Source of the DNA: Shigella phage sb1
Reading direction: 5' to 3' (one strand)
Sequence record: PQ666539
DNA length: 64,000 nucleotides
Shown here: piece after piece, positions 23,709 through 25,477 of the stretch
How the letters are laid out: each line of letters opens with the position of its first letter
Numbering within the stretch: the stretch's first letter is position 1
Notes under the pieces: model-generated
What the model saw: the letters and a program-made list of their open reading frames with translations, nothing else
Databases searched by the model: none
What the model was told of the DNA's origin: nothing
Program-made: the position numbers and the translations under genes

Positions 23709-25477
23709 AAAAGCCACAAGAAATGCAAACGATGCGTAGAAAAGTTATTTCAGATAATAAACCAACACAGGAAGCGGATAAATCCGCTTCCAACACTTTA
23801 TCTGGGCTTAATGACATTTCTACAAAATTGGATGATGCTCAAGCTGCTTCTGAATTAATAGCTCAAACCGTTGAAGAAAAATCGAATGAAATAATTTGAG
23901 CAATTGACAACGTAGAAAACGCAGTGAGCGATACTACTGCTGGTTCTGAGTTAATTGCTGAAACTGTCGAAATTGGCAACAATATTAATAAAGAAATTGG
24001 TGAATCGCTCAGGAGCAAATTAGATAAATTAACGAGTTTACTAGAGCAAAAAATTCAAACAGCCGGAATTCAACAAACAGGAACCAGCTTAGCTGTAGTC
24101 GAAAGTGCTATTCCCGTTAAATTTGTCGAGGATGATACAGCTGAATTCGTTGGTCCATTATTATCAGCTCCTGAAGCAGTTAATAATGATCCTGACGCTG
24201 ATTTTTTCCCTGCTCCTCAACCAGTTGAACCTAAGCGAGAGTCACCGGAAGAAAAACAGAAAAAAGACGCATTTAACTTAAAATTATCTCCCGCTTTAGA
24301 TAAATTAACAAAGACTGTTGATTTTGGATTTAAGAAATCTATTTCAATTACTGATAAAATATCGAGCATGTTATTTAAGTATACTGTCAGTGCTGCTATT
24401 GAAGCTGCTAAAATGACTGCAATGATATTGGCTGTTGTTGTTGGAATAGATCTGCTGATGGTTCATTTCAAATATTGGTCAGATAAATTTTCGCAGGCTT
24501 GGGATTTGTTTAGTACAGACTTTAAAACTTTCTCTAGTGAAACGGGAACATGGGGTCCTTTATTACAGAGCATCTTTAGTTCTATTGATGAAATTAAAAA
24601 ATTCTGGGAAGAGGGAGATTGGGGCGGTTTGACGGTAGCTATTGTAGAAGGGCTTGGAAAGGTTATTTATAATTTAGGAGAACTTATTCAGCTTGGAATG
24701 GCTAAATTATCTGCGGCAATTCTTCGAGTTATTCCTGGCATGAAAGACACTGCTGACGAAGTAGAAGGAAGAGCGCTGGAAAATTTCCAAAATTCTACTG
24801 GAGCATCTCTCAATAAAGAAGACCAGGAAAAAGTTGCGAATTATCAAGATAAACGAATGAATGGAGACCTTGTTCCGATAGCAGAAGGACTAGACAAAAT
24901 TGCGAACTGGAAAACTCGTGCATCTAACTGGATTCGTGGTGTTGATAATAAAGAAGCATTGACAACTGATGAAGAACGCGCAGCAGAAGAAGAAAAATTA
25001 AAGCAGCTTTCACCTGAAGAAAGAAAAAATGCTTTAATTAAAGCTAATGAAGCCCGTGCCGCGATGATTCGTTTTGAAAAATACGCTGATTCGGCTGATA
25101 TGAGTAAAGACTCAACGGTTAAATCAGTTGAAGCTGCCTATGAAGACCTTAAAAAACGAATGGATGACCCGGATTTAAATAATTCACCGGCAGTTAAAAA
25201 AGAACTTGCTGATAGATTTTCTAAAATTGATGCTACTTATCAAGAGCTCAAGAAAAATCAGCCTAATGCCAAACCTCAAACTTCTGCTAAATCGCCAGAA
25301 GCAAAACAAGTCCAGGTAATAGAAAAGAACAAAGCACAGCGAGCTCCTGTTCAACAAGCATCTCCTTCGATCAATAATACTAATAATGTTATTAAGAAAA
25401 ATACTGTCGTTCATAATATGACACCCGTAACGAGCACGACTGCTCCGGGTGTATTTGATGCGACTGGAGTTAATTAA
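23705..25477 (+). CDS. 29: Tail tape measure/baseplate hub protein gp29, interrupted by in-frame TGA at 23897-23899
   Basis: Two same-frame pieces (64 and 517 aa); span 590 codons, as T4 gp29. Confidence 0.85.

Follow-up and report, generated by a model that had tools for sequence, protein, structure and literature searches.

An in-frame TGA in the gene 29 homologue of a T4-like phage sequence, very probably one of about 250 unselected G:C>T:A changes overlaid on a natural Tequatrovirus genome

The window, that is, the whole 64,000-nucleotide stretch of DNA that was analysed, contains a homologue of T4 gene 29 whose reading frame is interrupted by a TGA at codon 65. The features at this locus are the following.

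23705..25477, plus strand: homologue of T4 gene 29 (baseplate hub / tail-length tape measure) and co-linear with it, 590 codons followed by TAA
23706..23708, plus strand: native TGA terminator of gene 28, overlapping the gene 29 ATG (ATGA)
23897..23899, plus strand: in-frame TGA at codon 65 of gene 29, GGA>TGA

The gene begins with the ATG at 23705, ends with a conserved TAA at 25475-25477, and aligns with T4 gene 29 (gp29, NP_049805.1, 590 aa) over 1773 nt with zero indels and 92.1% nucleotide identity. Its length, its place between genes 28 and 48, the ATGA overlap with gene 28 and the position of its stop are all the same as in T4, the difference being the TGA at codon 65, where T4 has GGA (Gly). 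The product is annotated in T4 and the relatives as a baseplate hub subunit and tail length determinator. Nucleotide identity to the nearest relatives, ECp13 and UGKSEcP2, is about 95-96% (95.0-95.7%), a megablast search of 50,697 phage records returned approximately 500 Tequatrovirus matches over the gene 29 region, and the gene order 51-27-28-29-48-54 is shared by the window, T4 and ten relatives. The co-linear alignment and the 590 codons, as in T4, confirmed an earlier assignment of the gene, made from the letters alone, as a homologue of T4 gene 29. The predicted product differs at 23 amino acids from that of UGKSEcP2 and at 30 from that of T4, and these differences are in part natural and in part due to the G:C>T:A overlay described below.

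The TGA cuts gene 29 into a 64-aa ORF (23705-23899) and a 517-aa ORF starting from the GTG at 23924, which is the sole downstream restart and has no Shine-Dalgarno-like sequence in the upstream segment GTAGAAAACGCA. A functional tape-measure protein calls for an uninterrupted frame, and the frame here is broken at codon 65. Gene 28, whose terminator lies 190 nt upstream in this cluster, itself ends on TGA, which indicates that the codon is functional as a stop there.

Positions 23897-23899 are an in-frame TGA, as the sequence-only reading had reported, and the ORF translation around codon 65, EEKSNEII(TGA)AIDNVENAVSDTTAGSELIAETV, agrees exactly with the translation quoted there. That reading had also placed a Ser at this codon of T4; when the alignment to T4 gp29 that it proposed was carried out, a sense codon was indeed found to be replaced by TGA, but the codon in T4 (NC_000866) is GGA and the residue is Gly, not Ser. 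Codon 65 is GGA (Gly) in nine of the ten relatives, T4 among them, and AGA (Arg) in phage ZCEC15, and neither Ser nor a stop was found at this codon in any of the ten. A single base change, G>T at 23897, makes GGA into TGA, and in the comparison with ECp13 the flanking 54 nt are identical and this G>T is the sole mismatch. With Gly at residue 65, a gp29 peptide across that residue would read NEIIGAIDNVENAV. The 24-mer carrying the TGA had no match in IMG/VR, in JGI metagenome contigs or in 185,579 GTDB genomes, whereas its GGA version, used as a positive control, was matched in IMG/VR.

The window as a whole corresponds to the T4-like genes 14 to 37, the T4 equivalent running from about 94.8 kb onward. 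From gene 14, the match to T4 (NC_000866) extends over genes 15-24, hoc, uvsW/Y, 25-29, 48, 54, alt, 30 and 31, and further over cd, pseT, alc, rnlA, denA, nrdB/A, td, frd, 32, 59, 33, rnh and 34-37. The best INPHARED match to the window is about 97% identical, and the IMG/VR relatives reach at most 96.7% identity, even with G>T/C>A differences discounted. A 50-mer from the window had no exact match in IMG/VR, the exact gene 28 product and the 517-aa gene 29 fragment were absent from an index of 153 billion genes, and a clean parent sequence was not found in INPHARED, IMG/VR or the gene-position index.

Several structural features of the window relate to its natural background. A segment of ~650 bp between genes 18 and 19 (5724-6380) is without counterpart in T4 and UGKSEcP2 and is present in most close relatives, whose annotations call it gene 19.1, a hypothetical protein or a homing endonuclease (e.g. 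ADUt L008, 17730-18380). The T4 mobile elements segD, segE, the nrdB group I intron with I-TevIII, and mobE are missing, at sites of about 12374-12432, about 17494-17514, 45277-46455 and about 46455-46511, and nrdB is uninterrupted at 1179 nt, like that of pSs-1; these gaps are ordinary presence/absence variation among T4-like phages. Two full-length tandem alt paralogues are located at 27925-32040. Most relatives have the same arrangement, whereas in T4 only alt.-1/alt.-2 are left as remnants; of the two paralogues in the window, the upstream one matches ECp13 alt_1 poorly (82%). The interval 8000-10000 (genes 20/67/68/21) has 44 private substitutions other than G:C>T:A in 2 kb, compared with 2-14 elsewhere, and is presumably a natural mosaic or divergent segment without a representative in the ten relatives. 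At the end of gene 51 (22053-22058), CAA occupies the stop position of ECp13 and T4 and the gene terminates one codon later; this 753-nt form is common to UGKSEcP2, ZCEC15 and vB_SsoM_113, and the longer end is natural variation outside the error layer. The base counts of the whole window are A 20530, T 20530, C 11720 and G 11220, so that A equals T exactly and all four counts are multiples of ten; sub-blocks have no such regularity, and the odd counts are probably a coincidence.

The annotated CDSs of T4, ECp13 and pSs-1 were mapped onto the window and the window was read in those frames. Thirty-three premature stops were found in 25 of the 65 co-linear genes, comprising 26 TAA, four TGA and three TAG, and 32 of them are accounted for by coding-strand G>T (GAA>TAA, GAG>TAG, GGA>TGA) or C>A (TCA>TAA, TAC>TAA). 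None of the 33 arose via a transition, though such paths exist from CAA, CAG, CGA and TGG. In addition, two start codons read ATT at positions where all relatives have ATG. The essential genes with premature stops include 16, 17, 18, 22, 23, 27, 29, 48, 32 and 34-36. The sequence-only reading had presented the TGA as an oddity of gene 29, a framing at variance with the like lesions in 24 other genes. Besides the TGA of gene 29 given above, the lesions are the following.

575..577, plus strand: gene 15 start, ATG>ATT, by G>T at 577; ATG in six relatives
1858..1860, plus strand: gene 16 (small terminase), TAA, E153 GAA>TAA
2975..2977, plus strand: gene 17 (large terminase), TGA, G366
3461..3463, plus strand: gene 17, TAA, E528 GAA>TAA
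4125..4127, plus strand: gene 18 (tail sheath), TAA, E128 GAA>TAA
10042..10044, plus strand: gene 22 (scaffold), TAA, S25 TCA>TAA
10312..10314, plus strand: gene 22, TAA, E115 GAA>TAA
11617..11619, plus strand: gene 23 (major capsid protein), TAA, L274 TTA>TAA, the one stop with an origin other than G>T or C>A
19075..19077, plus strand: uvsW.1, TAA, E11 GAA>TAA
20141..20143, minus strand: uvsY, TAA, E8 GAA>TAA
21609..21611, plus strand: gene 51, TAA, E102 GAA>TAA
22634..22636, plus strand: gene 27 (baseplate hub), TGA, G194 GGA>TGA, the same type of change as in gene 29
23075..23077, plus strand: gene 27, TAA, E341 GAA>TAA
25684..25686, plus strand: gene 48 (tail tube cap), TAA, Y67 TAC>TAA
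27586..27588, minus strand: alt.-3, TAA, S93 TCA>TAA
29449..29451, minus strand: second alt paralogue, TAG, E178 GAG>TAG
35336..35338, minus strand: 30.4, TAA, Y57 TAC>TAA
39687..39689, minus strand: cd.2-like gene (pSs-1 gp227), TAA, E22 GAA>TAA
39750-39752, minus strand: cd.2-like gene start, ATG>ATT; ATG in the relatives
43017..43019, minus strand: pseT.3, TAA, E29 GAA>TAA
43382-43384 and 43196-43198, minus strand: alc, two TAG, both GAG>TAG
44391-44393, 44238-44240 and 43665-43667, minus strand: rnlA, three stops, TGA (G132), TAA (E183) and TAA (Y374), respectively
48397..48402, minus strand: nrdA, two adjacent TAA, E124 and E125, GAAGAA>TAATAA
53210..53212, minus strand: gene 32 (ssDNA-binding protein), TAA, E9 GAA>TAA
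56717-19, 56786-88, 57647-49 and 59156-58, plus strand: gene 34 (proximal long tail fibre), four TAA
60109..60111, plus strand: gene 35, TAA, E209 GAA>TAA
61230..61232, plus strand: gene 36, TAA, S190 TCA>TAA

The substitution spectrum of the window was examined at sites where at least seven of ten projected relatives (L001-L010) agree, and a position was scored as a private substitution where the window differs from them. There were 261 private substitutions at 32,567 such sites, and 121 of these (46%) were G>T (63) or C>A (58). When each relative was used as the query in turn as a control, G>T/C>A made up 1-13% of the private substitutions, or 95 of 1550 (6%) when pooled, and the share in the window differs from that in the controls with a binomial P of about 3e-74. 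Transversions outnumbered transitions in the window (163 vs 98; ts:tv 0.6:1), whereas the ratio in the ten relatives as queries was about 2-13:1. The second half of the window, compared with pSs-1 alone, displayed the same asymmetry: G>T (114) exceeded T>G (49) and C>A (119) exceeded A>C (34), whereas the two directions were balanced for A<>G (226 and 228), for C<>T (189 and 194), and for A<>T and the other exchanges. The G>T/C>A excess was also repeated in comparisons with eight IMG/VR loci, representing six distinct contigs. Thus G>T and C>A are the only elevated types among the 12, and the class is symmetric between the strands (63 vs 58).

Neither a flanking-base preference at +/-6 positions of the G:C>T:A sites nor a trinucleotide preference among 16 contexts (chi-square p = 0.67) was detected, and almost no indels accompany the substitutions. 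In the first 37 kb, 1.05% of the invariant G/C sites were changed, and the asymmetry counts suggest that this rate is somewhat higher in the second half. A flat rate of 1.05% predicts 22.4 stops in the 65 genes, compared with the 33 observed (P = 0.02), which fits the higher G:C>T:A rate in the second half. The process thus departs somewhat from uniformity; along the window its rate is mildly patchy (chi-square p = 0.03), the 2-kb bins with few private G:C>T:A events being 4000-6000 (0 vs 7.3 expected) and 16000-18000 (1 vs 6.1); such a patchy error layer could reflect better read coverage in those bins or segments of different origin. Clustering of events within 10 nt was not significant, and clustering within 30 nt was marginal (18 pairs vs 11.3 expected, P = 0.02). 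The adjacent GAAGAA>TAATAA changes in nrdA (48397-48402) would be an unlikely coincidence under independent 1% events, and this double stop and the pairs within 30 nt hint at a slight local clustering of G:C>T:A changes.

The coding effects of the G:C>T:A changes match those expected if no selection had acted on them. They fell on the first, second and third codon positions 31, 25 and 22 times, compared with expected values of 34.9, 25.0 and 18.1 (p = 0.53), and comprised 7 synonymous, 61 missense and 10 nonsense changes (9/78/13%), while the unselected expectation, with each G or C equally likely to be hit, was 9.1/79.1/11.8% (chi-square p = 0.96). The private transitions of the same window, in contrast, comprised 48 synonymous, 20 missense and no nonsense changes, mostly at third positions, which is the ordinary pattern of purifying selection. 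The combination of unselected G:C>T:A changes with normally selected transitions indicates an unselected second layer on a normally evolved Tequatrovirus genome. Furthermore, since the G:C>T:A changes were never under selection, no replicating phage can have this exact string as its genome.

A chance stop inside a conserved essential gene is not expected in a functional genome. In gene 29, however, 82 stop-creating G>T/C>A paths at a rate of 1.05% give an expectation of 0.86 stops, compared with the one observed, so that an in-frame stop in this gene is expected because the substitution process affects the whole window. The TGA at codon 65 is very probably one of approximately 250 unselected G:C>T:A changes overlaid on a natural Tequatrovirus genome, of which the string would be a corrupted representation. 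It is a sequence-quality defect rather than a biological feature, and the G:C>T:A changes, whether oxidative or artificial, are not products of phage evolution.

The changes are directional and base-specific, have no context preference, bear no trace of selection and are incompatible with viability. With regard to their physical cause, oxidative damage or low coverage as against artificial alteration, we infer the following course. The starting sequence would have been a natural T4-like segment spanning genes 14 to 37, in which about 1% of the G:C pairs were randomly turned to T:A, the GGA>TGA change at codon 65 of gene 29 being one such event. Mispairing of adenine with 8-oxoguanine leaves G>T/C>A as its signature, and the most likely cause would be an error of the oxidised-guanine type (8-oxoG:A mispairing) that entered the consensus in sequencing or assembly. 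Against this cause, oxidation artefacts normally occur at low allele fraction and should not enter the consensus except at very low coverage. Alternatively, an in-silico alteration of like base specificity, deliberate or accidental, may have been made; a base-specific artificial alteration of an unpublished genome is possible because no clean parent was found.

Two other technical sources were considered. Uniform random in-silico noise was rejected, as only two of the 12 substitution types are elevated. The DNA of T-even phages carries glucosyl-hmC, and nanopore miscalls at this base are an unlikely source, given that no context was found at +/-6 nt or at the trinucleotide level and that indels are nearly absent.

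Split essential genes are also present in the closest public relatives. The tail sheath gene is split in Shigella phage sb2 (15744-17567), and the major capsid protein gene and hoc are split in Ec_YwIITB1 (22798-24359 and 27346-28775). The record of sb2 also has a raised share of transversions, at 60 of 187 private changes. These observations suggest that consensus errors occur in public records of the clade to which the window belongs.

It is very unlikely, but conceivable, that the changes were present in a real DNA molecule, such as a defective genome unable to replicate or the DNA of heavily oxidised particles, in which G:C>T:A changes were fixed by one round of copying, for instance during whole-genome amplification that started from one or a few damaged molecules. 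This explanation differs from an error of sequencing or assembly only in the site of the miscopying. The spectrum is exactly that of 8-oxoG:A mispairing, the changes are unselected, and the mild patchiness of the rate suits a physical origin better than a uniform in-silico one. On the other hand, alteration of ~1% of all G:C pairs would be an extreme load, and copying of a damaged strand over kilobases should give strand blocks, whereas a runs test found G>T and C>A events randomly interspersed along the window (z = -0.26). There is only a slim chance that the string represents a real T4-like molecule with ~1% of its G:C pairs oxidatively damaged and copied once before sequencing, such as a single environmental or amplified virion; if true, it would be a snapshot of lethal oxidative mutagenesis in a glucosyl-hydroxymethylcytosine phage genome, free of the context bias of library artefacts.

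A genuine UGA nonsense mutation in a viable phage is highly improbable. It would have to be made bearable by a suppressor host, by a suppressor tRNA of the phage or by the leakiness of UGA, only a few copies of gp29 being needed per virion. In E. coli, UGA is read through more readily than the other stops, nonsense mutants of T4 and tRNA-derived suppressors belong to classical genetics, and the lesion in gene 29 is a clean single-base change in a gene that is otherwise intact and co-linear, all of which would be in line with such a mutant. However, 32 other stops, of three types, are found in 24 other genes that include those for the major capsid protein and the terminase, together with the two lost starts, and this is more than any one suppressor could rescue. 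Selection has left no sign in the 61 missense changes of this class, the 64 kb window contains no tRNA gene, and the TGA variant is absent from the public collections that were scanned (IMG/VR, JGI metagenomes and GTDB). The window-wide pattern thus effectively refutes the presence of a viable opal mutant.

Reassignment of a stop codon or programmed recoding, such as the reading of TGA as Trp or Gly, along the lines of crAss-like and other recoded gut phages, is next to impossible here, in spite of the superficial likeness of many in-frame stops in late structural genes to recoded phages (PMC11210395, PMC10879173), because all three stop types occur in frame rather than one (TAA 26, TGA 4, TAG 3), all three still serve as terminators at conserved gene ends (TAA 43, TGA 17, TAG 3), and the 64 kb window has no tRNA by ARAGORN and hence no suppressor tRNA; moreover, the residues that the in-frame stops replace are of five kinds (E, G, S, Y and L), and no relative has any of these stops.

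The overlay of unselected G:C>T:A changes on a natural genome has consequences for the use of this sequence. Gene-level oddities in the window, such as split genes, odd starts, unusual residues and 'pseudogenes', need to be weighed against this layer, and naive annotation would fill the best-studied of all phage gene sets with dozens of spurious ORFs, truncated or split. The TGA has no bearing on gp29 function, translational recoding or suppressor biology.

In comparison with known systems, the window resembles the classical amber, ochre and opal conditional-lethal mutants of T4 in that one base change has put a stop into an essential gene of morphogenesis. Such a mutant has only one or a few stops, is otherwise wild-type T4 and can be grown on suppressor hosts, whereas the window has 33 stops in 25 genes and two lost starts and is only ~95% identical to T4. 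With recoded phages (crAss-like, Lak and others) it shares in-frame stops in structural genes, but their three hallmarks, which are the reassignment of a single stop type, a suppressor tRNA and avoidance of the reassigned codon as a terminator (PMC11210395, PMC10879173), are all missing from the window. The published 8-oxoG library-preparation artefact consists of C>A/G>T changes that are enriched for CCG>CAG, occur at low allele fraction and are specific to read orientation, with G>T in read 1 and C>A in read 2 (Costello et al. 2013, PMC3616734). The window differs from it in that CCG>CAG is not enriched (CGG 3 observed vs 3.0 expected) and in that the changes sit in the consensus, the consensus string alone being seen here. 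The substitution layer is accordingly described as '8-oxoG-like', a term that claims no membership in the published artefact (PMC3616734) and denotes what the two have in common, namely an excess restricted to C>A/G>T, no selection, and otherwise normal sequence.
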